Origin: Verrucomicrobiia bacterium
GTDB taxonomy: Bacteria; Verrucomicrobiota; Verrucomicrobiia; Limisphaerales; UBA11358
Assembly (NCBI GenBank): GCA_036502245.1
Contig: DASXYX010000024.1
Span: 5,130 to 69,129, forward strand
DNA: 64,000 nucleotides
Direction: 5' to 3'
Made by a program: the position numbers and the translations under genes. Every line of letters starts with the position of its first letter. The stretch's first letter is position 1. The notes below the pieces were generated by a model. It searched no databases, was not told the DNA's origin, and was given only the letters and a program-made list of their open reading frames with translations. This document shows positions 40,552 through 59,254 of this stretch, in pieces.

Positions 40552-42414
40552 ATGCCCGATATTGATTTACTGCACGAATACGCCCAATCCGGCTCCGAAC
40601 CGGCTTTCACCGCGTTGGTGGAACGGCATATCGGGTTGGTGTATTCCGCGGCATTGCGGCAGGTGGGCGATGCCCAATTGGCAGACGATATCACCCAGGC
40701 CGTCTTCATTATTTTGGCGAGGAAAGCCGGCAGGTTGCCCCGCGCCACTGTGCTGTCGGGTTGGCTGCTCAGAGCCACCCGCTTTGCCGCAAATGCCCAC
40801 ATCCGCTCCGCCATCCGGCGCACACAACGTGAACACGAGGCTTATATGCAATCCCTCAATGAACCCCATTCCCTGATCTGGGAGCAATTGGCCCCGCTCC
40901 TGGACGAAGCCATGGCCTCCCTGGGCACAACCGACCGCGCGGTGCTGGCGATGCGCTATTTTGAGAACAAAACCGCGCAGGAAATCGGCCAAATGTTGAG
41001 GTTGAACGAACAGGCGGCCCAGAAACGGGCCAATCGCGCGCTCGAAAAGCTTCGGAGCTTCTTCGCCAGGCGCGGGGTCAATTCCTCCGCCGAAACGATC
41101 GGCGAAACCATTTCCGCCCATTCCGTCCAGGTGGTGCCCCTAGCGATGGCCAAATCCGTTGCCGCCGTGGCAGTTGCCAAAGGCGCCGCCGCCTCAGCCT
41201 CAACCCTAACCCTCATCAAAGGAGCATTGAAAATTATGGCCTGGTCAAAAGCAAAATCCACCATCGCGGTCGCGGCCGTGGTGCTTTTAGGAGGCGGAGG
41301 CACAGCTATTGTCACGAAGGAAATAGTTCACGCCGTGCGGGTGGCGCATTATCCGGACATCCAGGGCGCGTGGGAGGGGGTCATGCTCGTTGATTATTAT
41401 CCCGGCGTGGTGAACGGCGAGTCGGCCAAAACCCATGTGGTGATCCATCTGGTCAAAAGATACGGCGTTTATTCAGCGACCGCTGACTTTATCGAGATGG
41501 GCCGAAAGAACGTTCCCATGGCCGGTGTTGTTTATGACTATCCATCGCTGCAGATCCAACAGACGGTGCGGGATGTGTGGAATTTAAAAGTAAATGCGAG
41601 TGCCAGGCAGATGAGGTGGGACCATTATATTCATTTCATTCAACCTGACCCTGTACAGTTGACGCGCACCACCGTACCGGACAAGGTTCCCGACCCGCTG
41701 ATGGAAGAAGATTTCACGCCACGCCACGGCTCCGATTTGCAGGGTTATTGGAAAGGACTATTAGGCGCCGGACCTGATGCGGTGCCAGTGGACCTGAAGA
41801 TTGCCGAGGAACCCGATGGAACATTTCAGGCGGAGGGTGACAACCCCATGGAAGGCGCGGACGGGGAGCCGCTGATCGTCACTTACAAGCGGCCCATGGC
41901 AACTTTTGCGGTGGCGTCAGGCGCCGGTGTGTTTCGCGGCCAGGTCAACGATGACGACACGGAAATCTCGGGCACCTGGGTACAAGGCGGCCAATCTCTC
42001 CCCGCCAGGATCAAGCGCGCCGATTATCAGGCCGAGCATGCGCAGGATGCGGAGAAGAATTACACATACACCTCGAAAGATGATTTGCAGGGACATTGGA
42101 AAGGATCATGGATCCTGACCGTATCAAAATCCAAGGCGACCATGCGCATGGCGCTCGATATTGCCAAACTGCCGGATGGTTCTTATTCCGCCACGATTTC
42201 GAGCGTGGACCAATTCGGATTTGACGCGCCGATACCGGCTTCTGATTTTCAATTTTCTTCGCCGAACGTTCATGCGGAATGGAAATGGGCGGGCGCGGGG
42301 TATGGCGGAGATGTGTCGCCAGGTTATGACGGAAAACTCGAAAACGGCAAACTCGTTGGCACATGGAATCAAAGTGGCGGCAGTTTTAAGCTGGTGTTTG
42401 AAAGACAGAACTAA
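40552..42414 (+). CDS. ECF sigma factor 1 fused to TM helix and three repeated extracytoplasmic beta domains
   Basis: [28 protein letters not shown], sigma4 region; DIQGAWEG / DLQGYWKG / DLQGHWKG repeats. Confidence 0.9.
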
Positions 42415-42431
42415 CTCTAATAACAATAAAT

Positions 42432-42653
42432 ATGAATAAATCGTTTATCCATCTATTGGCTATTGTTTCAGTCCCGTTGCTTTTGACCGGATGCGCAGGC
42501 CCCAACTTGTCTCTCGGCAGCGGATCCAAGACCGTCGTCGAAAAACCCACTCTCGGCCAACAACTCATTGATCTAAAAAAGGCAGAAGACAGCGGAGCAA
42601 TCACACCTTCAGAGTATCAGTCCCAGAAGGACAGACTTCTCCAGGGCAATTAA
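42432..42653 (+). CDS. Small lipoprotein with SHOCT domain
   Basis: LLTGC lipobox; LGQQLIDLKKA.DSGAITPSEYQSQK.RLL. Confidence 0.85.
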   Translation: MNKSFIHLLAIVSVPLLLTGCAGPNLSLGSGSKTVVEKPTLGQQLIDLKKAEDSGAITPSEYQSQKDRLLQGN

Positions 42654-42692
42654 GATGAAACATATCCGTCATGGACGGACTAAGAAGCAAGA

Positions 42693-42881
42693 ATGACAAA
42701 TCATGTTCCATTCCTCATTTGCACTTATGCAGGCTTTCTCCTGTTCAGCCTGTTTCAACAAACGCGATGGCTGCAACGGGTCAAATTCATCGGCTTGATC
42801 GCCCTGTGCGTACGGACCGCATGGTATGTAACGGGAGCGGTCGTCTGGTTTTGGTCGTGGCTTTACCAAAAGATGATATGA
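42693..42881 (+). CDS. Possible small membrane protein
   Basis: 62-aa hydrophobic ORF filling the gap; competing frames exist. Confidence 0.3.
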   Translation: MTNHVPFLICTYAGFLLFSLFQQTRWLQRVKFIGLIALCVRTAWYVTGAVVWFWSWLYQKMI

Positions 42882-42974
42882 TCGCGCCACTGAAAGCGTT
42901 GGTTTGGATGCCCATCCTCGACAACGTGGAATAGCGGATTTGACAGGGATCTGTCTACCGGTAATACTAACGGT

Positions 42975-43238
42975 ATGACCAACGCCAAATTGTTAAGTGT
43001 GAAAGTTCCGATGAGAGTTTTCCAGGCGCTGCCTGGAGCACATAAGGGACGCAGCCGGTTCATCATCGCAGCGTTGGAGGAAAAAATCCAGCGGGGACAG
43101 TCGGAATGGCAACCCACCAGCGAGCGCGGTCGCCGGCTCAAAGCCATTTTAGACAAGGGCGCGGCCGAACGCGGACCATTATTGGATGACGAGGGAATTG
43201 CCCGTGAGCTGCAGGAGCGCCGCGGGAGGTTCCATTGA
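42975..43238 (+). CDS. Putative RHH-type antitoxin
   Basis: LLSVKVP...RSRFIIAALEEK; TTGACA-17-AATACT promoter; overlaps the PIN gene. Confidence 0.75.
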   Translation: MTNAKLLSVKVPMRVFQALPGAHKGRSRFIIAALEEKIQRGQSEWQPTSERGRRLKAILDKGAAERGPLLDDEGIARELQERRGRFH

Positions 43239-43639
43239 AAACGATGCTCGATTCCAGCGTTTTGCTTCAGGCCTGGCGCGGAAATTCACCCCGATCGGCG
43301 GCCGCCAAGGAAATTTTGTCCGACCCGTCGCGTGATTTTGTCACCTGTGAAAACGTACAATTGGAATTGCTTCCCAAACCGGCCTTTGAGAAGCGCCATT
43401 CCGAAGTGGAATTTTACATGGCGCATTTTTCGGAAGCTTCCGCCTGCGAACGATTCAGCGAAGCACTGGGCAAAGCAGCGCTGGCACTGGCCACGCGACA
43501 CGGTTTGTCAGCGGGCGATGCGTTAAACCTGGCGTCCGCCATCAAGCTGGGCGCGAATGAATTCATTACAAGCGAATCGCCGGGCAAGCCGGTGTTCCGC
43601 ACTTCGGGGGTCAAAGTGATTTCGTTGCACTCCCTCTGA
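43235..43639 (+). CDS. PIN-domain (VapC-like) toxin
   Basis: MLDSSVLL, LELLPKP, GL.A.DAL.LA.A, FITSE. Confidence 0.85.
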   Translation: MKTMLDSSVLLQAWRGNSPRSAAAKEILSDPSRDFVTCENVQLELLPKPAFEKRHSEVEFYMAHFSEASACERFSEALGKAALALATRHGLSAGDALNLASAIKLGANEFITSESPGKPVFRTSGVKVISLHSL

Positions 43640-43760: not shown

Positions 43761-45233
43761 ATGCCTGAGCCTGACAATCAGTTGGTCGCCGAATTCAATG
43801 CCCAGCGCAGTGAAACGGCATTCGCCGCCCTGGTGCGACAACACCTGAACATGGTGTTCTCCACCGCGTTGCGGCAGGTGGGCGATGCCGGTGCCGCGGA
43901 GGAGATAGCGCAAAATGTCTTTGTGGCGCTGGCGCAATCGTCGGGCAAATTGGAATCGCACCCAACGATCGCCGGTTGGCTTTACCAGACCACGCTGAAC
44001 AAAGCCCGCGAATGGGTTCGCTCGGAGTTGCGACGGCGGCGGCGCGAGCAAACGGCGGCGGACCTCAACCTGGCGCGTGCGGAAGGCGATTCCCTGTGGT
44101 CGCCGCTGGTTCCCCTGCTCGACGAGGCGCTCCTGCAATTGCATGAAACAGACCGGTCGGCGGTGGTCATGCGTTTCATGGAGGGCCAGACGTACCAGGA
44201 GGTCGGTTCGGCCCTGGACATCAGCGAAGACGCCGCGCGCAAACGCGTCAACCGCTGCCTCGAACAACTTACTCATTTTTTCCAATGTCGCGGCTTCACC
44301 ACGCCCGCTCTCGCGGTCGATGCGCCGCTTTTTGCGCTGGCCATGCATGTCGCGCCCGCTACGTTGGCAGGCCACGCAACCAAAACCGCGTTGGCAACCA
44401 CTCATTCCGCATCTTCAACCCTAACCCTTAAAGGAGCATTGAAACTTATGGCATGGACCAAAGCACATACCACCCTCACCGCCGGCATAGCCGCCCTGTT
44501 CGTCATCGGAGCCACCACTGCGACCGTTGTCACCGTCAAAAAAATCCAGGCGTACGAGGTGGAAAATTACCTCGCGCATTGGGACAAGATGAACCTCAAT
44601 GACGCGCCGTTGCCAAACGTGGCGCTGCTCCGGCCAACCCGCTACCAGAACCAGGGCGATTGGATCCTTATCGGCGGCACGGGACCTGACGACCGGGCTA
44701 TGCGCCGGGACGCCAGCTTTCAGGAAGTCCTCTCAACCGCGTATGGCTTCAGCCCCGAACAAATGGTTTTTAATACCCGGCTGCCACGCGGCGGATTTGA
44801 TATGCTCCTCACCACCCCCAGCAACTCCCGTGAGACGTTGCGCACCGAGATCAAAAAACAGTTCGGTATTGTCGCTCATCCGGAGACACGCGATATGGAT
44901 GTCCTGGTCATGAAAGATGGCAACACCAACGCATCCGGCATCAAGATCAGTGACGGCGGTGGGCCGAACATTTTGGAGGACGCCGGAAGCATCAAACTAC
45001 ACGGCTATACCATGGCTGATATCGCCCATCTGATCGGGACACTTGATCACAAGCCGGTGGTTGATGAAACGGGCCTGACCAACGCTTATGACGTGGATGC
45101 CAGTTGGGATCCCAAACTTCAGGGAAAAGCTTTGCAAAACAAGCTCGATGACATCATCCGTAACCAGTTCGGCCTTCAATTGACGCCGGACACACAGCCG
45201 GTCCAGGTTCTTGTCGTCGAAAAGGCAAAATAA
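43761..45233 (+). CDS. ECF sigma factor 2 fused to TM helix and TIGR03435/DUF3738-like domain
   Basis: Sigma2/sigma4 motifs; PVVDETGLTNAYD, QFGLQL...PVQVLVVEK. Confidence 0.9.
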   Translation: MPEPDNQLVAEFNAQRSETAFAALVRQHLNMVFSTALRQVGDAGAAEEIAQNVFVALAQSSGKLESHPTIAGWLYQTTLNKAREWVRSELRRRRREQTAADLNLARAEGDSLWSPLVPLLDEALLQLHETDRSAVVMRFMEGQTYQEVGSALDISEDAARKRVNRCLEQLTHFFQCRGFTTPALAVDAPLFALAMHVAPATLAGHATKTALATTHSASSTLTLKGALKLMAWTKAHTTLTAGIAALFVIGATTATVVTVKKIQAYEVENYLAHWDKMNLNDAPLPNVALLRPTRYQNQGDWILIGGTGPDDRAMRRDASFQEVLSTAYGFSPEQMVFNTRLPRGGFDMLLTTPSNSRETLRTEIKKQFGIVAHPETRDMDVLVMKDGNTNASGIKISDGGGPNILEDAGSIKLHGYTMADIAHLIGTLDHKPVVDETGLTNAYDVDASWDPKLQGKALQNKLDDIIRNQFGLQLTPDTQPVQVLVVEKAK

Positions 45234-45391
45234 CTGTCACCGTTCCCGCTTCGGCGGACACATATAGGTGTGATAGACAAATTCCGGCCCGGTACCCGTC
45301 TCTCTAAAGGCGGGCTTGTCCCGTTTATAAACTTTCTTTATTTTTGTAACTGTTATCAGAAAACAGTGTTTATATCATAAACACGGAATTT

Positions 45392-46186
45392 ATGACCAAA
45401 ACTCAAATCATTGCATGGGGCAGTGTGAGCGCGGTATTGATCGCGGCGGCTATCGCTGTGAAATTGATCTTTTTTCCGTCTCTCAGTGAGACATACTTCG
45501 CCGTCAGTTCCAGCCGGTTGAGGACCGTGCCTGCGGGATACGTTGTGGTGCGTCCGACCCACTCTGCCGCGCAGAGCCGGACCGCCCAAAATCGCATCGC
45601 TTATGCCACTAAAGGAAGCGAACGGATTGTCGGCGTCAATGTCACCTTTCATACCCTGATTTCGCTGGCTTACAGCCATGATCCGGCGCATATCACGTTG
45701 CCATGGAACGCGCCTACGAATCAAAATTACGACATCCTGGTCACCGCTCCCGGCGATATTTCGCAACACCTGCAAGCGGCCATCCGAAGCAAACTCGGTT
45801 TCGTAGCCGACGTAGAAACCAACGAAGTCGATGTTATGGCATTGAAGATTGAAAATCCAACGGCGCAGATGCAGAACTTCAAGCTCAGTCCGGACATTGA
45901 AAAAGAGAACGAAGACATGAAGAATGGCCGCCTCTATTTCACTCATACGCGGCTGTTAACCATAATGAACGGCCTTGAGCAGATCATCCGAAGCCCCGTG
46001 GTGGACGAGACCGGCCTCACCAATTCCTACGATTTCTCGGTCGCCTGGAGCACCCAACTGGAAAAGCAGTTGCAAGGCGGCACGTTCAGCAAAGATCTCG
46101 GGGCGAAAATCCTGAGCGATTGGGGGCTGGGAATGGAGCCGGACACGGCCCCGATCGCAATGCTCGTTGTAAAGAAGGCGCCCTGA
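45392..46186 (+). CDS. Stand-alone TM + TIGR03435/DUF3738-like protein
   Basis: N-terminal anchor; LISLAY, PVVDETGLTNSYDF, GL.MEP..API.MLVV. Confidence 0.85.
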   Translation: MTKTQIIAWGSVSAVLIAAAIAVKLIFFPSLSETYFAVSSSRLRTVPAGYVVVRPTHSAAQSRTAQNRIAYATKGSERIVGVNVTFHTLISLAYSHDPAHITLPWNAPTNQNYDILVTAPGDISQHLQAAIRSKLGFVADVETNEVDVMALKIENPTAQMQNFKLSPDIEKENEDMKNGRLYFTHTRLLTIMNGLEQIIRSPVVDETGLTNSYDFSVAWSTQLEKQLQGGTFSKDLGAKILSDWGLGMEPDTAPIAMLVVKKAP

Positions 46187-46304
46187 TGCAATCAATTGTC
46201 CTCTTTTGCCATTTTGCGGACATACTGTATAAGGGCATAAAGGCCTGTCATTGAACATAAATAAATATTTTGCGTCAAAATCGATTATATTATCAGCAAC
46301 TCGA

Positions 46305-47090
46305 ATGAACCAAAACCGGACCAATCAAGCCAGCAACCGTAAGGCATCGCCGCCTGGATTCACGTTGATCGAACTATTAGTCGTCATCGCCATCATCGGC
46401 ATCCTGGCAGGGTTGCTCCTGCCCGTCCTGGGGGCAGCCAAACGCCGCGCTGCCCAGGCCGCCTGCATCAATAACCAAAAACAACTCGGCCTGGGCATGA
46501 GAATGTATATTGATGATGCGCACGATACTTTTCCCGGCATGGCCTCCCAGCACAGCGGTTTCCAGACATCTGACTGGATCTATTGGCGCACCAATTCCTC
46601 TTTTCCCCAGGTCCAGCAAAGTCCCATTGTCCTCACGCTGGCCAATACCAGCGCCACTCTGTTCCGCTGCCCCCTGGACAGGGACGATACCGCGCGTTTC
46701 GCCATAGCCGAGAGCGACCCCACCGACGGCCCCTACTTGTACAGTTACAGTCTGACCAGCTATCTGCCCACCACCGACGCCAATGGAAATACTATCAGCC
46801 CGGGAATGTCCTCAAACTTTTCCCAGACACCGCCACTCCCGTTCAAGTTGAACCAGGTTCGCAATCCTTCGGGCAAAATCATGCTCGCCGAAGAAGTGGC
46901 CTCGGAGGGCGGCAGAGATAATCCCACGGGCGCAGGGGTCATCAATGACGGACGCTGGATGCCCCAGAACCCGGACATTTTGACCTCGCGGCATGATGGC
47001 AAGGCCGATGTGGTCTTTGCTGATTTCCACGTCGATCCCGAGACACCGGATTTCGGGGAGGATGTGAACAATTCTCAACCCGATTTATGA
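46305..47090 (+). CDS. Prepilin-type N-methylation / H-X9-DG family protein
   Basis: [43 protein letters not shown]. Confidence 0.9.
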
Positions 47091-47860
47091 ACCTGCATCA
47101 TCAATGCGAACCCCGCATGAGACGTGGATTCACATTGATCGAACTGCTCGTGGTCATCGCCATCATCGGCATCCTCGCCGCGTTGCTCCTGCCCGTCCTG
47201 GGCGCGGCCAAGCGCCGTGCCGCCCAGGCCGCCTGCATCAACAACCTGAAACAACTCGGCACGGGCATGAGGATGTATATTGACGACAACCACGATACTT
47301 TTCCCGGCATGGCCTCCGAGCACAATGGTTTTCAGACTTCTGATTGGATCTATTGGCGAACCAATACTGCTTATCCCCAGGTCCAGCAAAGTCCCATTGT
47401 CCTCACATTGGCCAACACCAGCGCCAGTCTTTTCCGATGCCCGTTGGATAGGGACGACAGCGCGCGGTTTGCCGAGGGCGCGAACGATCCGGCCAATGGC
47501 CCCTACATGTACAGCTACAGTTTGACCAGTTTCGATCCAGGCACCGATGCGAACGGCAATGCCGTTGCCATGGGAATGTCCTCAAATTTTTCAAAAAATC
47601 GCAACCTGCCTTTTAAGCTGGCCGCAGTCCGCAATTCCGCCGGAAAAATCATGCTTGCCGAAGAAGTCGCCTCCGCCGGTGGCAGCGACAATCCCACGGG
47701 CGCAACAGTGATCGATGACGGGCGCTGGATGCCGGCGGAACCTGACCTGCTGACCTCTCGCCACGATGGCAAGGCCGATGTGACCTTCGCCGATTTTCAC
47801 GTCGCCCCAGTCACCCCGGACTTTGCCCAGGACGTAAACAATTCCGAACCGGATTTGTGA
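47087..47860 (+). CDS. Prepilin-type / H-X9-DG family protein, close paralog of 46305-47090
   Basis: [29 protein letters not shown]; long stretches identical to the upstream gene. Confidence 0.9.
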
Positions 47861-48618: not shown

Positions 48619-48695
48619 CCGGGAGTCCATCTCATTCAGTTTGACCTGCAAAATTAATTGTCTCCTTTTCCCGCCGGTGTCCATTTATTAAGTGG

Positions 48696-50171
48696 ATGAT
48701 GAATGATGACATCGCGCTGGTACGCAAATACGCCGCCAGCCGTTCCGAACAGGCCTTTGAGACACTGGTCACGCGCCATGTCAATCTTGTCTATTCGGCA
48801 GCCATCCGGCAGGTCAACGATGCCCACCTGGCCGAGGACGTCACCCAGGCGGTCTTTGTCATCCTGGCGCGAAAAGCCTCGTCGCTTCCCGCCAAAACCG
48901 TCTTGTCCGGCTGGCTTTACAAAACCGCGCGCTTCGTCGCCGCCGACGCTCTCAAAACCCAACGCCGTCGCGAGCGGCGCGAACAGGAGGCCCATATGGA
49001 ATCTCTCAATGACTCCGTGCAACTCGATTCCGAATGGCAAAAACTCTCTCCCTTCCTCGACGAGGCCATGGCGCATTTGCATGACACAGACCGTAACGCC
49101 GTCGTGTTGCGCTTTTTTGAAGGCCGCAACTTGCAGGAGATCGGCACAGCCCTCGGCTTGAGCGAGGACGCCGCCAAAAAACGCGTCAGCCGCGCCCTTG
49201 AGAAGCTCCGCAAATTTCTCGCCCGCCGCGGCGTCGATTCCACCACCACCGCCATCGGCGAAACCATCGCGGCCAATTCCATCCAGGCCGCCCCCGCAGT
49301 TCTCGCCAAATCCATTACCGCCGTGGCCGTCGTCAAAGGCGCCGCCGCTTCAACCTCAACCTTAACCCTCATCAAAGGAACTCTAAAAATTATGGCATGG
49401 TCCAAAACTCAAACCGCGATTGTCGCCGGCGTGGTTGTGCTCTTCGCAGCCGGAACTGCCACCGTAACCGTTAAACAAATCGAAAAGGCGCACACTTCGG
49501 ACAATGCATGGCGAAATCCAAACATCGATTCGGGCACTGTCGATAAACTGCCGCCAAAACTGGAGATCGCGCCGACAATATTCCCGAAGGGAGGAAATTG
49601 TTCAGCCGGATACGGAAGTCTTAAATGTGTCGGAATCGACCAATCGGTCGCCAACCTCATCAACTATGCCTATGACTGGCCGCAAGCCCGGATGGTTTTT
49701 CCCGGCGGCCAGCAACCACAGGAGAAATACGATTTCGTTGCCACCCTCCCCCAAGGAAACCGCGAAGCCTTGAAAGACGAATTGAAGAACAGATTGGGGT
49801 GGGTCGGACATCCTGAAACCAGAAACGAAGACGCCCTGCTGCTCGTAACAGTCAATGCAAACGCTCCCGGATTACACCCACCGACAAAGGGGAATTATTC
49901 CTACATGAACGGGAATGGGAATCGAATGAAAATCACCTGGGCAAATGAACCCATCTCTACAATAGATTTTTTCCTCCAGGGCAGCTCGCCTATGCCGATC
50001 ATCGATGAAACTCACGACACTAAACATTATAACGTCGATCTCAAATGGACCGAAGACCTGGCGGACCCAGAACATACCGCCCTGCAAAAGGTCATGCGAG
50101 AGCAACTCGGTCTCGTGCTGGTTCCCACCAATATGCCCATCGATATGCTCGTCGTCGAAAAAGTGAAGTGA
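48696..50171 (+). CDS. ECF sigma factor 3 fused to TM helix and TIGR03435-like domain
   Basis: Sigma2/sigma4 motifs; PIIDET...Y...L.W, EQLGL.LVP...P..MLVVEK. Confidence 0.9.
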
Positions 50172-50249
50172 TCTCCGCCTGGATGATTCCCAAAGTCACC
50201 TTTAAAAATAGTTGTCTGCCGTCCGGTCATGGCGGCAATAATACTATGA

Positions 50250-51806
50250 ATGCAAGATTTTCAGGACACGGACTTGTTGCGCAGCTATGCCCGGCATAAT
50301 TCGGAAGCCGCCTTTTCAGAATTAGTGCGCCGGCACATCGGCCTGGTCTATTCCGCCGCCCTTCGCCAGGTCAACAACCCGGCGCAGGCTGAAGAGATCA
50401 CCCAGGCGGTCTTCATTATCCTTGCCCGTAAAGCCGCTCTCCTGCGTTCAAATGTTGTTCTGGATGGCTGGCTCTATGAAACCACACGATTCACCGCCTT
50501 AAGCGCGCTTCGCGCCGAACGGCGGCGGCTATTCCGCGAACAGGAGGCTTTTATGCGATCCAACATGGATGAGACCGATGCTCCCTTGCTTTGGAACCAA
50601 CTGGCTCCATTGTTGGAGGAAGCCATAGCGCGGCTCGGCAAAACAGATCGCGATGCCCTGGTCCTGCGTTTTTTTAAAGGTAAAAGCGTGCGCGAAGTCG
50701 CCACGGTGATAAACATGACCGAAGCGGCGGCGCAACGGCGCATCCTCCGCGCCCTCGAGAAACTCCGTAAGTTTCTCGCCCGGCGCGGAATCAATTCCAC
50801 CGCCGGCGCCATCGGCGAAACCATCGCCGCCAACTCCATTCAGGCCGCGCCCATCGCCCTGGCCAAATCTGTGACTGCCGTAGCCGTTGCCAAAGGCGCG
50901 GCCGGTTCCGCATCAACTTTAACCCTCATCAAAGGAGCATTGAAACTTATGGCATGGACTAAAACTCGAACCACCATCGTAACCACCGCAATCGTGTTGC
51001 TGATGGCAGCCGGAACCACTGCAACCGTCAAAGATGTTGAATACCACCAATACGCCCGAAAATATTATACCTGGCAGGTCCGACAGGCGGATTTCGGCGT
51101 TTTCTACAAAGCCTTGCCACAGATCTCAATCCTGCCCACCCGGTTCGAAGGTGATACCAATGGCGGTTGGTGCGCAGACGGCAGCAGAGGCGCTATGGGC
51201 ATTGACCAGCCGATCAAAGAAATGGCCGAAGTTGCTTACCAGCAGGATGACCTGCACACCGTTGCGATCTCCGGTCTGCCGACCAACCGGTATGATTTTC
51301 TGGCGAAATTGGTCGGCCCCATGGTTCAACATCAAAATTTTCCTCAAAATGAGAAATGGGCCGGTGAATTTCAAAAAGCCATCGCCAAACAGCTTGGAGT
51401 CACTGGCCGGTTTGAAATGCGAAACACAGACGTTTGGCTTCTGAGGCCTGTTCCCGCCGGGGTTCACGGTTTCAAAACCAGCCATGGCATGCCGGGCGGC
51501 ATAGCGGTTAAATCCATCCATCAGGCAGGTCCGACGAGTATCACGGTTGGCAATGAATACCACGAGCAACCCGTCAGCACATTCATGTATATGCTTCAAT
51601 TCAACCTCAAGCAAACGGTCGTTGATGATACGGGTTTGACCAATTCTTACGATTTTTCTTTCACCTGGACACAAGACAAGGACGTGCGTGGCATGCCTTT
51701 GCCGGACATTGACGAACTAAATCCATTGCTCACCGATCAACTTGGCCTCGAACTCGTCTCCACCAATATGCCCGTCCGAATGCTCGTCGTCGAAAAGGTG
51801 AAATAA
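50250..51806 (+). CDS. ECF sigma factor 4 fused to TM helix and TIGR03435-like domain
   Basis: Sigma2/sigma4 motifs; VVDDTGLTNSYDF, DQLGLELV. Confidence 0.9.
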   Translation: MQDFQDTDLLRSYARHNSEAAFSELVRRHIGLVYSAALRQVNNPAQAEEITQAVFIILARKAALLRSNVVLDGWLYETTRFTALSALRAERRRLFREQEAFMRSNMDETDAPLLWNQLAPLLEEAIARLGKTDRDALVLRFFKGKSVREVATVINMTEAAAQRRILRALEKLRKFLARRGINSTAGAIGETIAANSIQAAPIALAKSVTAVAVAKGAAGSASTLTLIKGALKLMAWTKTRTTIVTTAIVLLMAAGTTATVKDVEYHQYARKYYTWQVRQADFGVFYKALPQISILPTRFEGDTNGGWCADGSRGAMGIDQPIKEMAEVAYQQDDLHTVAISGLPTNRYDFLAKLVGPMVQHQNFPQNEKWAGEFQKAIAKQLGVTGRFEMRNTDVWLLRPVPAGVHGFKTSHGMPGGIAVKSIHQAGPTSITVGNEYHEQPVSTFMYMLQFNLKQTVVDDTGLTNSYDFSFTWTQDKDVRGMPLPDIDELNPLLTDQLGLELVSTNMPVRMLVVEKVK

Positions 51807-51852
51807 ACATTTTCTTTGTCCCGTTTTGGGGTTCATGGACATCATGGGGTAA

Positions 51853-53319
51853 ATGCCAGAACAGGACGACCATCAATTGCTCGCCGATTTTGCCCGTAGC
51901 GGTTCGGAAACCGCTTTTTCCGAACTGGTACGCCGGTATATCGCCCTTGTCTATTCCACCGCGCTCCGGTTCACCAGCAATCCCCATCACGCGGAGGAGA
52001 TCGCCCAGGCCGTGTTTGTCATTCTCGCGCAGAAAGCCGGCACATTGTCGTCGCGCGTCATCCTCTCCGGCTGGCTGTACCAGACGGCGCGGCTGACTGC
52101 GGCTAATTTTGTGAAAGGTGAAATCCGGCGCGCACACCGCGAACAGGAGGTCTATATGCAATCCATCCTACCCGACCCTGAACTCGCCGACTGGAACAAA
52201 ATTGCCCCGCTGCTCGATGAAGCCATGGGCAGCCTCGGCGAAACCGATCGCAATGCCCTCGTCCTGCGCTTCTTTGAAAATTGCACTTCGGCGGAGATCG
52301 GCGCGGCGTTGCGGATGAACGAAGAAACCGCCCGCAAACGCGTGAATCGCGCCCTGGATAAACTGCGAAAAATTTTCAGCGCTCATGGCGTGAGTTCCAC
52401 GGCGGAAGCCGTCGCAGGAGCTATCGCCGCTAATTCCCTTCAGGTGGTGCCCGCATCCGTTGCCCAATCAGTGACCGCCGCAGCCGTCGTCAAAGGCACA
52501 GCCGTTTCAACCTCAACCCTAACCCTCATCAAAGGAACTCTAAAAATTATGGCATGGTCCAAAACTCAAACCGTCATTGTCGCCGGTGTCATTGTGCTGC
52601 TCGCGGCCGGAACTACTACCGCAACCGTTAAGCACATTCAAACCGTGCGGCTGCATGAAAATCTCTGGCGATACCCGGACATCAATTCAATGAGCCTGGC
52701 TAAAGTGCCGCCGGCGGTGGACATCCTGCCGACCATTTTCCCCAAAGGCGGCAATTCGGCATCGACCGACCGGAAATACGTCGGGATCGATCAATCAGTC
52801 GTCAACATCGTCGCCGATGCCTACAATTGGCCGCAGGCCAGGATTGTTTTCACCGATGGTCAGCCGCCCGAAAGATACGATTACATCGCCAGTCTCCTGA
52901 ACGGATCCCGCGAAGCGTTGCAGGACCAATTGAAGAAAAAATTAGGACTGGTGGCGCATCCTGAAATGAGAAACGAAGATGTCGTGCTGCTCGAAATGCA
53001 GAATCCTCACGCGCCGGGCCTTCACCCGCCGGTGGCAGGAACCACCAGCGATATGACCATGAATGGCAACCAAATCGAATTATCGTGGCAAAACAGGTCC
53101 ATCTCCAGCATGGCGGATCGTCTCCAAATGGCTTCCCCCCTGCCCATCATTGATGAGACGCATAGCACAAAACATTATAGCATCGATATTACCTGGCAGG
53201 AGGACCCGCAGGACCCGGAACATACCGCGCTGCAAAAAGTCCTGCGCGAGCAACTCGGCCTGATATTTGTTCCCACCAACATGCCCGTGAAAATGCTCGT
53301 CGTTGAAAAGGTGAAATAA
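51853..53319 (+). CDS. ECF sigma factor 5 fused to TM helix and TIGR03435-like domain
   Basis: Sigma2/sigma4 motifs; C-half closely similar to ECF 3. Confidence 0.9.
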   Translation: MPEQDDHQLLADFARSGSETAFSELVRRYIALVYSTALRFTSNPHHAEEIAQAVFVILAQKAGTLSSRVILSGWLYQTARLTAANFVKGEIRRAHREQEVYMQSILPDPELADWNKIAPLLDEAMGSLGETDRNALVLRFFENCTSAEIGAALRMNEETARKRVNRALDKLRKIFSAHGVSSTAEAVAGAIAANSLQVVPASVAQSVTAAAVVKGTAVSTSTLTLIKGTLKIMAWSKTQTVIVAGVIVLLAAGTTTATVKHIQTVRLHENLWRYPDINSMSLAKVPPAVDILPTIFPKGGNSASTDRKYVGIDQSVVNIVADAYNWPQARIVFTDGQPPERYDYIASLLNGSREALQDQLKKKLGLVAHPEMRNEDVVLLEMQNPHAPGLHPPVAGTTSDMTMNGNQIELSWQNRSISSMADRLQMASPLPIIDETHSTKHYSIDITWQEDPQDPEHTALQKVLREQLGLIFVPTNMPVKMLVVEKVK

Positions 53320-53340: not shown

Positions 53341-54132
53341 ATGGCGGACATAACGAGGAAGATAATGACATGGCCACAGCAGGGGCATACAATCGCCGTC
53401 AAACAAAACGGCTGTATGCAATCCGTTCATTTCAATTCCCGATCTATCCTACAATTCCTGGGGATGATTGCCTTTGTTTGGTTTTCCACACCCTTGTTTG
53501 CCGTAGCGGGGCAGATTTATCTCGGCCCGGGAAATTCAGGCGACTCCAGCGGCGGCTCGGACTGGCTCACCGGGGCCAATGGCGGAGGAGTCACTACCCT
53601 GGATTGGGATGACCCGCCGACCACCGGCAGCTTTGATTTCAGCATCAGCAATGCCGTGGCCGGCAAAGGCAACAATGGAGATTGGCGCTGCCCGCCCTTT
53701 TCGCTCGGACCCGCCGCCAGTGGCGCAAGGTCCCTTACATTTTCTTTCGCGTATAAGCTTGTGAGCCCCGTAGCCAAAGGAAATAATATCTACGTGCAGT
53801 TGCGCTTTTTCGATGCCACCGGAACCAATTTTATTTCCCAAATTGTCCTGCCCCTCGGCGCGCACACCGCCGATTCACAAATGGCCGACTACAAAACACG
53901 CACTATCGAGAATATTCCCGTCCCTCGTAGAGCGCGAACGGCGGACATCTGGATTGACGCCAATATCTTCGAACCGTGGGTATCGGGCGTCGCGCGCTTT
54001 GGTAATTTCTCTGTCACTACCGTACCACGCTCACTGGCATTCAAAGCGGGTGTCGCCTTTGGCGTTCTCTTCAGCTTCGGCGCTTTGATCTGGATTTCAG
54101 CGTATTTCTGGCAGCGATCCAGGCCGTCGTGA
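53341..54132 (+). CDS. Hypothetical exported protein with C-terminal TM anchor (possible carbohydrate-binding beta sandwich)
   Basis: Signal-like segment after M at 53416, [11 protein letters not shown]-terminal hydrophobic helix; start uncertain. Confidence 0.7.
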
Positions 54133-54989
54133 TTATGAAACGTTCCGGAGCCTTCACATTGATTGAATTGCTGGTGACCATTGCCATCATCGCTATCCTT
54201 GCCGCCCTGCTCCTCCCGGTCCTGAACCGCTCCAAACAAAAGGCCTGGCAAGCCGATTGCCTGAACAACATACGTCAACTCCAATTGGGTTGGCTGACTT
54301 ATGCCAACGATTCCAACGATCATGTACCCTACAACTCTTCCGGTGATAACGCCGGCCAGACTCCTGAAAATCCAGGTTGGGTCGCCGGAGACATGTACCT
54401 GGATTGCGATGCAGGCCAGGACCTGACCCAAAGCACCAACACTCAATTCCTTGTCGGACCTCAATATGCACAATTTGGCTCCATCGGCGGCTATGTCAAA
54501 AATCCGACCGTCTATCACTGTCCGGCGGATATGAGCACGGTGACCATCGGAGGTGAGAAGTTGCCGCGGGTGCGGAGCATGTCCATGAACAATTACATGG
54601 GGGCGATGGAATTGCCGGGCTTTCGCTATTTCATGAAATTGCAGGAAATCACCGCGCCCGGCCCAAGCGATGCCTGGGTCTTCATGGATGAACGCGCCGA
54701 TTCCATCAATGACGGTTTGTTCGCCGTGGACGCTGCATCGCAATACGCCATCATCGATTATCCTTCGTGCTATCACGATCGCGGCTCATCCATCTCCTTC
54801 GCCGATGGCCATGTCGAATATCATCACTGGATCGAACCAACCACCGACCCGCCGATGGATGTCAGCCAGCATCTTCCCGGCGGGTCCAAGCTGACTTCGC
54901 CCAATGACCGTGATATGCAATGGCTTGTCTTGCATACCACCAGCAAAACGCCTGATAAGCCCTCGGTTCATTCCAGGTCGCATAAATAA
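54129..54989 (+). CDS. Prepilin-type / H-X9-DG family protein
   Basis: [40 protein letters not shown]. Confidence 0.9.
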
Positions 54990-55070: not shown

Positions 55071-55559
55071 ATGACGAATAGCGATTCGGAAGATACCCTG
55101 GTCATCCTCAAACCCGACTCTTTCTGGCGCAAATTGGACACGCAAGTCGTCAACCGCATAAAATCCCTGGGACTAAAAGTCACCGCCGAACGTGTCCTCC
55201 AGGGCAGCGAGAATCTTTCTGAACCAAAATGGCGCGAATTTTATTTTCCCTCCATCGGCAGCCGCCCACCGTGCCTGGAGGGAACCTCAAAATACATGGC
55301 CCATGGCCCGGTGCAGGTCATCCAGTTGCACGGTGCGAATGCCATCCAAACAGTCCGCACAGCCATTGGCGCGACTTTTCCATCCAAAGCGGCGCCGGGC
55401 ACCATTCGCGGTGATTTTTGGCCCGGCGCCACCGAAGCCAACGCGCCCTATCGCCTCAAATTCCAACAACCCGGTGACGACCAATTCCTTTTCAATATGA
55501 TCCATGCCTCGGATTCCCCACAAAGTTTTGCAAGAGAGATCCAGTTCTTTAAATTTTAA
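55071..55559 (+). CDS. ndk: Nucleoside-diphosphate kinase (divergent)
   Basis: TLVILKPD, GP, VR..IGAT.P..A.PGTIRGDF, NMIHASDS. Confidence 0.85.
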   Translation: MTNSDSEDTLVILKPDSFWRKLDTQVVNRIKSLGLKVTAERVLQGSENLSEPKWREFYFPSIGSRPPCLEGTSKYMAHGPVQVIQLHGANAIQTVRTAIGATFPSKAAPGTIRGDFWPGATEANAPYRLKFQQPGDDQFLFNMIHASDSPQSFAREIQFFKF

Positions 55560-55602
55560 AATATCCTGTTACCTTTCCCATTCCGCGTAAATATATGGGT
55601 AA

Positions 55603-57045
55603 ATGAACGACGATTTAGCGCTGCTGCGCGAATATGCCCGGAACGGTTCGGAACCGGCCTTTGCCGCGCTTGTTGGGCGGCATATTCATCTCGTCTATTC
55701 CGTGGCGTTTCGTCAAACACAGGACGCCCATCTCGCCGAGGAGATCACCCAGGCCGTTTTCATCATTCTCGCGCGCAAAGCTGGGTCGCTTGGCGATAAG
55801 ACCGTTTTGAGCGGCTGGCTTTGCCGAACTGCCCGCTATGCCGCCGCCAATGCTCTCAAAATCCAGACGCGCCGCCAGCACCGTGAACAGGAGGCTTATA
55901 TGCAATCCACTTTGAACGAACCCGCCCCCGATGAAACCTGGCATCAGATTTCCCCCCTGCTCGACGACGCCATGCGCAAGCTTGGGCAAAAAGACCACGA
56001 TGCCCTCGTCCTGCGATATTTTGAGAACCGCAATTTTGCCGAAGTCGGCGCCACCCTTGGCGCCAGCGAAGACGCCGCCAAAATGCGCGTAAGCCGCGCG
56101 CTGGAAAAACTACGGCAATTTTTCGCCAAACGCGGTGCCTCATCCACCACTGAATCCATCGCTGAAAACATCTCCCATCATTCCATTCAATTCGCGCCCG
56201 AAGCCTTGGTCGTCACTGTCTCCGCCACTGTTGCCAAAGGGTCAACCGCCGCAGCCTCCACCCTTACCCTTGTGAAATCAACCCTTAAGATTATGACTTA
56301 CGCAAAGCTTAAACTATCCCTGGGCATCGCCGCCGCCATCCTGCTCACTGCCGGAGCTGCGACCGTCGCAATTTCCCAAATCGATGCGGATCAAATTCGC
56401 GATTCCTTGACGCCGCAACAAATAATTCAAAAGTCACAAGACGCCTACACCTCCCTTTCCAGTTACAGCGACAACGGAGAAGTCGTTTCCGCCGTGAATG
56501 GCATGACCCTGACAAACTTTTTTACCATCAAACTGGCACGACGGGATTTATATCGTGTTCATACCGAATCGGTTTCAGGGGGCTTCACAAATTCAGAGAC
56601 GACCTGGTCAGGGAATGACGGAGATTATATGCAGATGAACAATGGCCAGGTATTTCGGCGAAATGACGGGCTTTGGGGCGCGGGTGGGCAGGTTCCGGCT
56701 ATTCCGGGCACCTTTTTCAAAACTCCTTGGGGTAATCAACTGGGCCTGCCTGTATCGGGTGAAAAACAGGAAACAGATGCAAGAACCGGTGATACGGACT
56801 GTTATGTTTTCGTTAATACACTCGGTGGAACAACAAGAACGTTATGGATCGGCAAAAAAGATTTTTTGATTCGCCAAATACAAAATATATCCGATCCAGA
56901 AGCTGTAAAAGCTGCGCTCGAACACGCTGCAAAAGTCACCGGCAAACCCGCTCCCAAGCTGCCTCCTGGAAGCATCACGTCAACCGAGACCCACGAAAAC
57001 ATCGTATTAAACAAAAAGTTGTCACTCCCGGATTTTCAGCAGTAA
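55603..57045 (+). CDS. ECF sigma factor 6 fused to TM helix and LolA-like/DUF2092-like domain
   Basis: Sigma2/sigma4 motifs; AY.SL.SY.D.G, F.IKLAR..LYR, TLWIGK.DFLIRQ; domain call by eye. Confidence 0.85.
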   Translation: MNDDLALLREYARNGSEPAFAALVGRHIHLVYSVAFRQTQDAHLAEEITQAVFIILARKAGSLGDKTVLSGWLCRTARYAAANALKIQTRRQHREQEAYMQSTLNEPAPDETWHQISPLLDDAMRKLGQKDHDALVLRYFENRNFAEVGATLGASEDAAKMRVSRALEKLRQFFAKRGASSTTESIAENISHHSIQFAPEALVVTVSATVAKGSTAAASTLTLVKSTLKIMTYAKLKLSLGIAAAILLTAGAATVAISQIDADQIRDSLTPQQIIQKSQDAYTSLSSYSDNGEVVSAVNGMTLTNFFTIKLARRDLYRVHTESVSGGFTNSETTWSGNDGDYMQMNNGQVFRRNDGLWGAGGQVPAIPGTFFKTPWGNQLGLPVSGEKQETDARTGDTDCYVFVNTLGGTTRTLWIGKKDFLIRQIQNISDPEAVKAALEHAAKVTGKPAPKLPPGSITSTETHENIVLNKKLSLPDFQQ

Positions 57046-57097
57046 TGATCTTAAATAAACTGTCGGATTTTCGCGGCTGGCGCACACTTATGGGTGA

Positions 57098-59254
57098 ATG
57101 CAGCCCATGGATGATAACGCCCTCTTAAGGCAGTTTATCGAAGAAAAATCGGATGATGCCTTTGCCGCTCTCGTGAAGCGGCACATCCATTTTGTCTATT
57201 CCATTGCGTTGCGCCAGACCGCTCACCCGCAGATGGCCGAGGAAATCACCCAGGCGGCGTTCATTATCCTCGCGCGCAAAGCCGCCGGTCTGCGCCATGA
57301 AAAGGCGCTTTCCAGTTGGCTCTTCCAAACAACTCGTCTCACGGCCAATAATTTGTTGCGCAGCGAAATCCGGCGGCAGAATCGCGAACAGGAGGCTTTT
57401 ATGCAATCCGCTTTGAATGAACCTGAGAATGCGTCCTGGCAGCAAATCGCTCCGTTGCTCGACGAGGCGGTGGCGGCCATGCGCGAAAAGGATCGCCGGG
57501 CAATCCTCCTGCGGTTTTATGAAGGGAAAAATTTGCGCGACGTCGGCGCCGCATTGGGCACGAATGAAGACGCGGCGCAAAAGCGAGTTGAGCGCGCCCT
57601 GGAAAAACTCCGGACATTTTTCACAAAGCGTGGAATCCGCTCCACCGCCACGACGATCACCGAAGCCATCTCCGCCAATTCCCTTCAACTCGCGCCTGAA
57701 ATGCTTATTGCCACAATCGCTTCATCCACCGTCAAAGGATCGACGACTGCGGCATCCACCCTCTCCCTTGTGAAAACGACCCTCAAGCTTATGACCTACG
57801 CAAAAATTAAATTGTCCCTGGGCATCGCGGGCGCCATTCTGCTCGTCGCCGGAACTGCGACCGTCGCCATTTCCCAGATCAACAACGGCCAGACAGCCAG
57901 TCCTTTGACGCCCTATCAAACCAATATTCAAACACAGAAACCCGACGTCCCGGTTGTCGCCGACGGTGATAACGCGCAAATCGTAGCCGACCCGAACGAC
58001 ACGGCCATTGCCACCGGCTTCACGAACAACTTGAATTCGGACGATAAAGAACGGAATACGGCGTTGCAAAGGGCGTTCGACCAATTTCCATTGTTCACGC
58101 CCAGCACGAATGCCGACGGCCAACTGGATTTTCAAACTCTTCCACTGGCTGATCCTGTCGTGATCAATCACGAGCGGTTTTTTGGTTTTCGTTTCACGGT
58201 ACCCGCGCGCGCTCATCACGAAGATTTGGTCTGGGGATTCGCCCTGCCCGGTGACTTAAAGGAATGGTATATCGTTCCTCAGACCGGTTCCATGGAAGGT
58301 TTTGAAAATTATAACTTCACGTCAAAAGGCGATTATCTGCGGGAAAAACCACTCCTGCCCATGAACGCCAACAGGTTGATTTTACAACATCTCGCCGGCG
58401 ATCGTTTGAAGGATGGCCAGACCTATCTCATCTGGTTCGGGTTTGGAAATTACAACGCACCCGGCATGTCAGTGATCTTTACGTTCACCAACTTCGACGC
58501 AAACCCGCCGCATCCCATTATCAGTTTCGAGCGAGCGCTCGCTTTGAATGAACTGGACAGTAAGCCTGTGGTCAACCCTGCAAATCACCACACCTATATG
58601 CTCCTGCGGCCGACAAATTGGCAGCGCGCCGAAAAACTCGCCGAACAACTTGGCGGCCATCTGGCCACCGTTCGCAATCAGGCGGAGGAGGATTGGATCT
58701 TCGATACTTTCGGGCACTACGGCGGTTGCCGGCGATCGTTGTGGATCGGCCTGAACGACCTGGACAAGCGTTTTCATTTCAGTTGGGCCGGTGGCGAGTC
58801 CGCCTCATACACCGACTGGGCTCCTTATGAACCGAATAACGCCGGACCGCGGGGTGAGGATTATGTCGCCATTTATTATCCAGGCCATGCCCATGCCAAT
58901 GAATGGAGAGTCTGGAACAGTCGGCGTCGTGACCCGGGTGGCCCGCCAATGGATGGTGTCGTGGAAATCATTCCAAATACCGCCACATCATCGGCTCCGG
59001 TCGTGCCTGTTGCCAATACCGCGCCGGTGCAAATCCTTCCCAATGTCACCGTTACCAGCACCAGTGGCAGCATCGAGTTGGCGTGGCCGCTCTCCGCTGC
59101 CGGATACATATTGGAAGCCACCACCAATCTGTCGCAGCCCTTTGCCGAATTTGGTTATTCTGAGGAAACAAACACCCAGGACGGCGTCATCTACGTGAAC
59201 ATCACCAATCCCGCGCCGCAAATGTTCTTCAAACTAAAAGAAATCCAGCCCTGA
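57098..59254 (+). CDS. ECF sigma factor 7 fused to TM helix, unknown domain, C-type lectin domain and C-terminal extension
   Basis: W..AE..A..LGGHLATV....E..WI, WIGLND, YTDWAPYEPNN, EDYV; tail LAWP....YILEATTNL...FFKL. Confidence 0.88.
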   Translation: MQPMDDNALLRQFIEEKSDDAFAALVKRHIHFVYSIALRQTAHPQMAEEITQAAFIILARKAAGLRHEKALSSWLFQTTRLTANNLLRSEIRRQNREQEAFMQSALNEPENASWQQIAPLLDEAVAAMREKDRRAILLRFYEGKNLRDVGAALGTNEDAAQKRVERALEKLRTFFTKRGIRSTATTITEAISANSLQLAPEMLIATIASSTVKGSTTAASTLSLVKTTLKLMTYAKIKLSLGIAGAILLVAGTATVAISQINNGQTASPLTPYQTNIQTQKPDVPVVADGDNAQIVADPNDTAIATGFTNNLNSDDKERNTALQRAFDQFPLFTPSTNADGQLDFQTLPLADPVVINHERFFGFRFTVPARAHHEDLVWGFALPGDLKEWYIVPQTGSMEGFENYNFTSKGDYLREKPLLPMNANRLILQHLAGDRLKDGQTYLIWFGFGNYNAPGMSVIFTFTNFDANPPHPIISFERALALNELDSKPVVNPANHHTYMLLRPTNWQRAEKLAEQLGGHLATVRNQAEEDWIFDTFGHYGGCRRSLWIGLNDLDKRFHFSWAGGESASYTDWAPYEPNNAGPRGEDYVAIYYPGHAHANEWRVWNSRRRDPGGPPMDGVVEIIPNTATSSAPVVPVANTAPVQILPNVTVTSTSGSIELAWPLSAAGYILEATTNLSQPFAEFGYSEETNTQDGVIYVNITNPAPQMFFKLKEIQP

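Follow-up and report, generated by a model that had tools for sequence, protein, structure and literature searches.

A Verrucomicrobial array of membrane-tethered ECF sigma factors with predicted built-in inhibition, autoregulation and internal translation starts

Seven ECF sigma factors fused to exported domains

In a 64,000-nt stretch of the genome of a Verrucomicrobiia bacterium (GCA_036502245.1, contig DASXYX010000024.1, forward-strand positions 5,130-69,129; this whole stretch is referred to as the window), an array of seven extracytoplasmic function (ECF) sigma factor genes was found between positions 40552 and 59254, each fused via an Ala-rich linker and a predicted transmembrane (TM) anchor to an outer domain, here called the cargo. 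Our data lean towards a model in which these proteins are self-inhibited, autoregulated sensors that would be released by intramembrane proteolysis, and in which each gene would also yield a sigma-less exported copy of its cargo. The evidence lies in the codons at the junction between linker and anchor, in the modelled contact of the linker with the sigma domains, and in the promoter motifs ahead of the genes.

All seven open reading frames (ORFs) are intact and lie on the + strand (genes 1 to 7, Table 1). Sigma70_r2 and Sigma70_r4/r4_2 scored above the Pfam cut-offs in all seven products, about 30 aa apart, and TIGR02937 was also above its cut-off, identifying them as group 4 (ECF) sigma factors, with sigma2 and sigma4 and without sigma3; the modelled ECF protein resembles SigW, SigK and CnrH. 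In every product the parts follow the order sigma2, sigma4, Ala-rich linker, junction Met, predicted TM anchor and cargo, the anchor being a single moderately hydrophobic stretch behind the junction Met (Kyte-Doolittle 19-residue maximum of 1.77-2.23). The first 260 residues can be aligned across the seven (mean column identity of 66%) and the cargos cannot. A preliminary description of this DNA had proposed such an architecture for seven genes, which is borne out in all of them, along with a strict motif, STL(T/S)L.K..LK(I/L)M, which is present in six; gene 2 lacks it, being one residue shorter.

The junction carries a candidate internal translation start

Among paralogs on four contigs, the DNA beneath a 13-residue junction motif is almost identical codon by codon. 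The junction codons spell AAAGGAG, a Shine-Dalgarno (SD) sequence complementary to the end of the genome's 16S RNA, 11 nt ahead of an in-frame ATG. Across 155 family members, the fixed codons (background in brackets) include the rare GGA for Gly228 at 0.96 (0.15) and GCA for Ala229 at 0.89 (0.08), as well as TCA for Ser221 at 0.85 (0.07), TTA for Leu223 at 0.69 (0.02) and AAA at 0.96 (0.58). The GC content of third codon positions (GC3) is 0.27 under expectation across columns 216-232 and matches expectation in the sigma core.

With a start-site matrix trained on 976 real starts of this genome, 135 junction Mets gave a median start score of 6.8, compared with 6.6 for real starts, -6.6 for internal Mets and -6.1 for other Mets of the same genes; the junction Met of gene 1 scores 6.2, within the top 1% of internal Mets. 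The junction Mets are also unstructured (-6.0 vs -15.3 kcal/mol). When codons were resampled at fixed protein sequence, SD words fell from 0.81 to 0.07, the start score from 6.8 to -5.7 and the folding energy from -6.0 to -12.0. Since the signal disappears on resampling, it is a signal at the nucleotide level and not of the protein alone. As 74 loci were gathered partly by a Met-containing peptide pattern, which inflates the Met count of 149/151, the fair count is a profile-only recount of 147 members (including L002-L030 again), of which 144 were long enough to score and 3 were too short. In this recount a Met was present in 133/144 members, compared with 16-22% of control windows, GGA encoded 33 of the 38 Gly residues, and the start score exceeded the 95th percentile in 56% vs 7%. 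Where the junction Gly is missing, GC3 remains low before and after the ATG alike.

A corresponding signal was found in another phylum. Planctomycete ECF57-type proteins carry E-G-(V/A)-L-x-x-M at the equivalent place (G and M each at 0.78 of 120 proteins, 40 of which form an author-chosen seed alignment, mostly EGVLxxM, with codon choice unaffected). In 69 dereplicated metagenome genes of this type, the Gly is encoded by GGA in 52/63 (background 0.12, and 35/270 when the next codon begins with G), and the Met is present in 64/66. The form of the signal differs between hosts, being broad and A/T-rich with an SD in Verrucomicrobia and a narrow GAAGGAG in ECF57, while its distance to the ATG is fixed. 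In 98-100% of both sets, basic residues and then a hydrophobic core follow the Met, which is the build of a signal-anchor. Codon identity is 0.61 at the junction and lowest, at 0.32, past the anchor, where the cargos diverge. Moreover, three sigma-less genes (loci L038, L099 and L102) begin at the junction ATG and form intact frames of 200-206 aa with 47-59% identity to fusion cargos; two of the three loci share upstream DNA and may represent a single event. Taken together, these sequence features make it likely that the internal start is used to produce a sigma-less exported copy of the cargo. Because this short form would be without the linker, it could not be an anti-sigma factor.

Several other origins of the junction signal were considered and rejected. 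A frameshift or overlapping-ORF reading found no slippery heptamers (1.5% vs 2%), and the stops in the +1 frame are accounted for by the amino acids (0.93 vs 0.91). No match to the ECF promoter motif scoring 5 or more was found inside the genes, which disposes of an internal promoter at the junction. Recent tandem duplication or gene conversion does not suit array members whose cores are only 46-60% identical to that of gene 3 and which do not form a clade; the junction codon identity persists between loci less than 65% identical in protein.

Two further observations concern starts of this kind. On contig C14 (11457-12251), a second sigma-less DUF3738 gene has a junction-like start context (I-K-L-M-T-Q-K) without the ECF promoter motif. 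Six loci (L014, L030, L252, L264, L289 and L249) have no internal Met, several of them with W in its place, and offer natural controls for the internal start.

The linker is predicted to be a built-in anti-sigma domain

In the AlphaFold2 model of the gene 3 protein, the two linker helices (Table 1) are followed by a disordered spacer (aa 217-229) and a helix at aa 230-251. When the sigma part (aa 1-179) and the linker (aa 180-236) were modelled as separate chains, the complex scored 0.76, compared with 0.00 for the best of three controls, with contacts agreeing to at least 94% between runs and a partner pLDDT of at least 75. The mark set for this score is reached by 116/157 solved pairs and 2/215 mismatched pairs, a calibration that holds only roughly for a complex with its own alignment and for two pieces of a single chain. 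In the predicted complex, the linker contacts sigma4 (residues 111-121, 136-143 and 165-176) and sigma2 (residues 29-34, 47-59 and 77-88), with the first helix on sigma4 and the following part on regions 2.1, 2.2 and 2.4. RseA-type and CnrY-type anti-sigma factors bind in the same dual mode, and the class II factor CnrY likewise places a first helix on sigma4 and another on sigma2 (as described in sections of PMC7406223). Unlike the linker, CnrY is a separate protein, and the likeness here is one of predicted binding mode. This modelling strongly suggests that the Ala-rich linker serves as the protein's own anti-sigma factor, clamping both sigma4 and sigma2.

No conserved anti-sigma family was found among 457 neighbouring genes, in which prepilin genes (35 loci) alone form a widespread linked family. 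What follows the ECF is a prepilin gene in 25 of 116 cases, another ECF gene in 22 and a gene on the opposite strand in 31 (78/116 altogether). Cognate anti-sigma factors encoded elsewhere would have spoken against the one-component design without separate anti-sigma genes that the preliminary description proposed; the genome has five FecR matches, none of which shares a contig with any of its 17 genes of this family, and the proposed design is upheld, with the linker as the predicted anti-sigma part.

Promoters, a residue-to-base code and a predicted prepilin regulon

Six of the seven array genes have their own ECF-type promoter (Table 1), built of an A-tract upstream of TGT(C/T), a TTT downstream of it and a GCG(T/G)(A/C/G)CAT-like box. 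Across the family, TGT(C/T) lies 35-65 nt ahead of the codon for the conserved Asp5 in 135/152 members, and exact TGTC was found in 94/152 members vs 51/612 coding windows. The distance from the promoter TGT to the gene ATG is 36-37 nt, suggesting a nearly leaderless mRNA.

The promoter bases vary with two residues of the sigma factor. The residue at sigma4 column 162 goes with the fourth promoter base (K162 with C in 91/92, M162 with T in 38/39), and that at sigma2 column 84 with a base of the -10 element (N84 with A in 47/52, D84 with C in 26/30). Among 102 loci fetched later (83 with a promoter; 9 repeat sigma cores of the training set), K162 went with C in 61/61, M162 with T in 12/18 and never with C, and D84 with C in 17/17. 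Along the tree, no fewer than 11 changes of the residue that goes with the base were counted. Residue-to-base codes are already a known property of ECF sigma factors (bioRxiv 10.1101/2020.06.23.168245, in part). From these patterns it is highly probable that each sigma factor reads the promoter of its own gene, so that transcription would be autoregulated.

The motif, mostly in its GGACA form, also stands ahead of 10/49 prepilin genes near these ECF genes (two of the 49 rows are one locus) vs 0/49 control stretches; genome-wide, only 2/40 prepilin genes are above the promoter threshold. Sigma factors with N84-F85 carry GGACA in their own promoters (NFK in 6/6, NFR in 7/12). Of the 15 own-genome members listed, gene 5 alone encodes the N84-F85 type, which makes it the likely activator of the prepilin operon and the sigma-less DUF3738 gene, whose GGACA promoters at 46197 and 45235 it is predicted to read. 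Further GGACA-type motifs stand on contig C41 before a lipoprotein-like gene (C41:2035) and a prepilin gene (C41:3243), as candidate members of the regulon.

Family size, ancestry and cargo domains

The genome carries 17 such genes on 9 contigs, seven of them in the array. The family was found in 41/61 genomes of the window's order, with up to 34 copies per genome, in 8/9 genomes of the genus (0 to 25 copies) and in 11/151 genomes drawn from the phylum, the own genome counted. Among 7,998 candidate proteins scored, at least 7,014 are relatives. Record titles of relatives name Verrucomicrobiota, Limisphaerales and Pedosphaera; no relative was found in a plasmid collection. On the sigma tree the array members do not form a clade and have their closest relatives mostly in other genomes, indicating that the array collects old paralogs. 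In a quick tree whose outgroup was only the 12 other ECF sigma factors of this genome, the sigma cores are sister to the planctomycete ECF57-type clade (Shimodaira-Hasegawa-like approximate likelihood ratio test, SH-aLRT, 99). Two loci (L111 and L112) from another class of the phylum hold Cys-bearing, ECF57-like members in frames of about 1,950-2,300 aa, with AAAGGAG 11 nt ahead of an internal ATG and with close relatives bearing alpha-2-macroglobulin domains. Two membrane-tethered ECF sigma factors of another kind, with several TM helices and perhaps ECF263-like, are encoded at C58:4351-6615 and C65:74859-76568, the former behind a TGTCAC promoter-like motif.

The cargos fall into 37 clusters among 134, and at least 26 switches between DUF3738 and other cargos were counted on the sigma tree (110 rows, without a shuffled comparison), which supports their being interchangeable. 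Of the outer domains named in the preliminary description, four TIGR03435/DUF3738 domains, the triple repeat and the C-type lectin (Lectin_C, E 2e-8) stood, and the LolA-like label of gene 6 did not: its cargo has no Pfam match and nothing among PDB sequences, and one of six relatives matches LolA_like at E 0.13. In the gene 1 cargo, which belongs to no Pfam family, [LI]QG.W.G repeats begin at aa 270, 396 and 512. The DUF3738 model is confident (pLDDT 94) and had no Foldseek match at E 0.001 and none by PDB sequence. A wide structure search gave weak matches (best Z 5.5, root mean square deviation 3.1, 79 aligned), the top rows being mostly secretin N0 domains, phage baseplate domains of the same fold and FecR-type anti-sigma C-domains; FecR_C matched 1/38 DUF3738 domains (E 0.003), and no FecR match was found in the seven array proteins. 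No paper on DUF3738 or TIGR03435 was found in a mostly non-subscription literature.

In the wider family the cargos include HEAT, LRR, TPR, carboxypeptidase-regulatory and secretin domains and GH10, whereas ECF57 cargos include RND adaptors, serpins, polysaccharide export and thioredoxin-like domains. The cargo of a family ECF at locus L101 (3893-4951) is an entire GH10 glycoside hydrolase, the two catalytic Glu motifs included. Many cargos are proteins with an envelope function of their own, an observation more in keeping with a second, sigma-less product than with sensing alone. Glycan sensing, as earlier proposed, suits some cargos and not others, and the term sensor domain is incomplete for a part whose junction is constrained at the codon level as an internal start and which, in many family members, is a working exported protein.

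Comparison with known systems

Membrane-tethered ECF fusions are already known, namely ECF57, IutY and ECF52. According to its description (sections of PMC7826278), ECF57 is restricted to Planctomycetes, its Cys pair is conserved throughout, its promoters are not conserved, and the proteins may be released from the membrane. The present proteins share with ECF57 the sigma core, an ...L..RG element, the Ala-rich linker, G-x4-M, the hydrophobic anchor, variable cargo, the same SD-Met signal and many paralogs per genome, and thus have the TM extension and variable outer domain of that group. They differ from it in their Verrucomicrobial host, in a clear autoregulatory promoter and in having Ala/Arg at the Cys positions (145/155 members), where the ECF57-type set has Cys in 66/69 and in 34/34 pattern matches. 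Neither an anti-sigma linker nor an internal start is mentioned in the sections of PMC7826278 that describe ECF57, and the 10 Verrucomicrobia passages covered from its supplement describe neither a single-TM fusion group nor this family.

IutY of Pseudomonas putida, an ECF243 sigma/anti-sigma hybrid, is released by Prc and then RseP (portions of PMC5411451 and PMC8999054), so the statement in the preliminary description that no activation mechanism is established for this type was too strong. Like IutY, the array proteins have sigma, anti-sigma, TM and periplasmic parts on one chain, the anti-sigma part here being predicted, and the DUF3738 model weakly resembles the secretin-N0/STN fold of FecR-type anti-sigma C-domains (Z up to 5.5). 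Unlike IutY, which is one gene tied to a TonB-dependent receptor, they have no such conserved neighbour among the 457 neighbouring genes, their cargos are interchangeable, and a genome may carry up to 34 copies of such genes. ECF48/52/53 of Actinobacteria (SCO4117) also combine a TM extension with an outer carbohydrate-binding part and are expected to undergo proteolysis, but carry a zinc-finger anti-sigma domain (parts of PMC8999054), whereas the linker consensus here is without conserved Cys/His.

For the internal start, the closest likeness is E. coli arcB, in which a conserved SD-like sequence and an in-frame start stand at the domain boundary of a membrane signalling protein (sections of bioRxiv 10.1101/520783). 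The features that mark the start of ArcB-C in sequence, a conserved in-frame start, an SD or open context and synonymous constraint, are all found here. ArcB-C is a cytoplasmic domain demonstrated by ribosome profiling and Western blot; in contrast, the short form predicted here would correspond to the exported half and would be encoded by thousands of genes.

A working model and the alternatives to it

In the off state, the linker helices would clamp sigma4 and, on sigma2, the parts that bind core and read the -10 element, while the anchor would tether the protein to the inner membrane. Were something to change at the cargo, an outer cut by Prc-type trimming or by signal peptidase would become possible, after which RseP would cleave the weak, Gly/Thr-rich anchor and the freed linker would be trimmed or dissociate. 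The sigma factor would then read its own promoter to give a nearly leaderless transcript, and one subtype would also drive prepilin and sigma-less DUF3738 genes. Ribosomes entering the same mRNA at the internal start would make extra anchored cargo, which would do its job or absorb the signal and so close the loop. By analogy to IutY, proteolytic release appears reasonably likely. Signal peptidase acts at site 1 on RsiV and RsiP. RseP-like, S41 and signal peptidase (S26) genes occur in this genome. On a wider view, which we put forward as tentative, the promoter, sigma factor, built-in anti-sigma, internal ribosome-binding site and signal-anchor may form a portable cassette across the Planctomycetes-Verrucomicrobia-Chlamydiae bacteria that makes any exported protein self-regulating. 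The long product would watch the workload or ligand of the cargo and the short product would be the working cargo; a few sigma residues would give paralogs their own promoters, so that dozens of loops could run in parallel, and the DUF3738 members, with their secretin-N0/STN-like fold and prepilin control, would monitor pilus or secretion assembly.

A number of observations count against this model. Gene 2 is without a canonical promoter; the N84-to-A pairing falls to 17/29 in the later loci; and the promoter covariation leaves only 3-4 independent pairs on well-supported branches, in the right direction and, owing to this small number, non-significant (p 0.25-0.5). The linker complex consists of two pieces of one chain with their own alignment, and such cases tend to pass. 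The protease genes are near universal, so their presence does not discriminate, no protease gene is a conserved neighbour, and the Verrucomicrobial anchors show no clear signal-peptidase site (A-x-A in 16%). At the junction, the start score is above the 95th percentile in just 56% of the more diverse set, 11 of 144 members (about 8%) have no Met in the window tested, and genes 6 and 7 are without an SD. The spacing of 11 nt between SD and ATG exceeds the 4-7 nt for which the starts of this genome show a weak preference, and the genome makes very little use of SD sequences, with SD words not enriched at 976 confident starts; its 16S end carries a normal anti-SD, and its starts are marked instead by A/T richness. 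Met233 sits in the predicted linker-sigma interface, so the Met residue alone could be kept for protein reasons.

The points on spacing, SD use, the missing Mets and the contact of Met233 with sigma would all suit plain IutY-like one-component sensors with a single product, in which the junction DNA would be some other cis signal, such as a ribosome pause ahead of the anchor, a site for an RNase or a small RNA, or a recombination patch through which cargos are exchanged, an aid that at least 26 changes of cargo class would make useful. We regard this explanation as unlikely, since the codon signal varies with the host while the distance to the ATG stays fixed, the cargos diverge past the anchor with the drop in codon identity given above, sigma-less genes use the same ATG, and slippery sites are absent and off-frame stops explained by the protein. 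The fusions might alternatively be activated without cleavage, with ligand binding or dimerisation of the cargo pulling the linker off and the sigma factor working while tethered. Membrane regulators of the ToxR/CadC type act in this way. The disordered spacer between the linker helices and the anchor, and the lack of a linked protease gene, would agree with such a mechanism; nevertheless it seems improbable, as cargos of dozens of unrelated folds couple more easily to proteolysis than to one conformational relay, and IutY, the only tested hybrid, requires RseP (parts of PMC5411451).

Fortuitous capture, in which duplicated sigma cores landed ahead of exported-protein genes whose start and signal peptide persist and whose cargo is non-regulatory, would follow the chance insertion of sigma2-sigma4 that Pinto and da Fonseca propose for planctomycete extensions (sections of PMC7671368), and many cargos are indeed ordinary exported proteins. 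It is nonetheless a rather remote prospect: homology of the linker, start signal and anchor extends over unrelated cargos and two phyla, which places these parts in the sigma module and makes the moving unit larger than sigma2-sigma4; the linker is predicted to be inhibitory; and many genomes have intact fusions that bear the same cargos. Finally, separate anti-sigma factors could be sought among the five FecR-domain genes or in the missing part of a genome that is 92% complete. With no FecR gene on the contigs of the 17 family genes, the gene following the ECF accounted for in 78/116 cases as above, and the anti-sigma surfaces already covered by the linker in the model, this explanation is scarcely credible.

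Array layout and neighbouring genes

The coordinates of the array features are given in Table 1. As stated in the preliminary description, the ECF genes are interleaved with prepilin-like genes, four of them inside the span, and with a sigma-less TIGR03435 gene. The span also holds genes for a SHOCT lipoprotein, a PIN toxin-antitoxin pair, a nucleoside diphosphate kinase and an unnamed membrane protein.

Table 1. Features of the ECF array, with positions counted from the first nucleotide of the window
Feature	Position	Strand	Description
ECF gene 1	40552..42414	+	620 aa; cargo of three beta repeats, no family name
ECF gene 2	43761..45233	+	490 aa; DUF3738 cargo; long branch
Sigma-less DUF3738 gene	45392..46186	+	264 aa, signal-anchored; built like the predicted short forms
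Three overlapping prepilin-like genes	46251-47090, 47087-47860, 47857-48618	+	N_methyl in 3/3, DUF1559 in 2/3
ECF gene 3	48696..50171	+	491 aa; DUF3738 cargo; protein used for modelling
ECF gene 4	50250..51806	+	518 aa; DUF3738 cargo
ECF gene 5	51853..53319	+	488 aa; DUF3738 cargo; N84-F85 type
Unnamed membrane protein gene	53341-54132	+	263 aa; followed by prepilin-like gene 54129-54989
ECF gene 6	55603..57045	+	480 aa; cargo without family name
ECF gene 7	57098..59254	+	718 aa; cargo with C-type lectin
Predicted promoter, gene 1	40500..40525	+	TGTCCG ... GCGGGCGT; motif score 34.0
Upstream element, gene 2			TTTCCG where TGTCC is expected; missed by the promoter scan
Predicted promoter, sigma-less DUF3738 gene	45235..45260	+	TGTCAC ... 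GCGGACA; score 28.4
Predicted promoter, prepilin operon	46197..46222	+	TGTCCT ... GCGGACA; score 17.0
Predicted promoter, gene 3	48659..48684	+	TGTCTC ... GTGTCCAT; score 40.8; TGT to ATG 37 nt
Predicted promoter, gene 4	50213..50238	+	score 17.4
Predicted promoter, gene 5	51817..51842	+	TGTCCC ... ATGGACAT; score 21.4
Predicted promoter, gene 6	55567..55592	+	TGTTAC ... GCGTAAAT, M162 variant; score 35.8
Predicted promoter, gene 7	57061..57086	+	TGTCGG ... GCGCACAC; score 34.4
Candidate internal start, gene 1	41218..41238	+	AAAGGAG and in-frame ATG at 41236 (Met229); predicted short form 392 aa
Candidate internal start, gene 2	44430..44450	+	AAAGGAG and in-frame ATG at 44448 (Met230); predicted short form 261 aa; score 6.4
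Candidate internal start, gene 3	49374..49394	+	AAAGGAA and in-frame ATG at 49392 (Met233); predicted short form 259 aa; score 8.1
Candidate internal start, gene 4	ATG at 50949	+	AAAGGAG; score 7.0
Candidate internal start, gene 5	ATG at 52549	+	AAAGGAA; score 7.4
Internal ATG, gene 6	56293	+	A/T-rich context without SD; score 7.0
Internal ATG, gene 7	57791	+	without SD; score 1.6, top 5.5%; weakest start context of the seven
Linker, gene 3 (aa 180-233)	49233..49394	+	predicted anti-sigma domain, helices 184-194 and 201-216

Toxin-antitoxin-like pairs, consisting of PIN genes with small upstream ORFs plus a HicB-like gene, lie within and flanking the array (42975-43639, 39555-40230 and 59290-59720, with more at 60880-62902), which fits an insertion hot spot. 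After the array comes mnmA (59810-60895); as an mnmA-like gene neighbours ECFs of this family in 9 loci, the site may be a recurring one. Directly past gene 1 are a 73-aa lipoprotein-like SHOCT protein (42432-42653) and a 62-aa hydrophobic ORF (42693-42881). The product of 53341-54132 has N- and C-terminal hydrophobic stretches and no Pfam/NCBIfam match, and its gene is coupled to a prepilin gene; a similar-looking gene stands behind an ECF at locus L096. The nucleoside diphosphate kinase gene (55071-55559) is divergent.

Implications

No paper on this ECF family, including the ECFs of Pedosphaera, nor on an internal start in such genes was found in a mostly non-subscription literature, where prior mention is possible. 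New here are the model of the linker as an anti-sigma, the promoter code together with the prepilin genes predicted as a regulon, and the tests by codon resampling and across phyla. The regulation of ECF57-like fusions is an open question in the ECF classification papers, and few regulators of soil Verrucomicrobia and Planctomycetes have expanded as far as such fusions. For the present family, our analysis yields a located predicted inhibitor (aa 180-233), a residue-to-base promoter code, a predicted prepilin regulon and a precise candidate internal start. If the reading is true, one gene would supply a self-activating regulator plus the exported protein under its control. Should the short product be real, a whole family of regulators would encode sensor and effector in one reading frame, and the paralogs would be a natural set of orthogonal sigma-promoter pairs.

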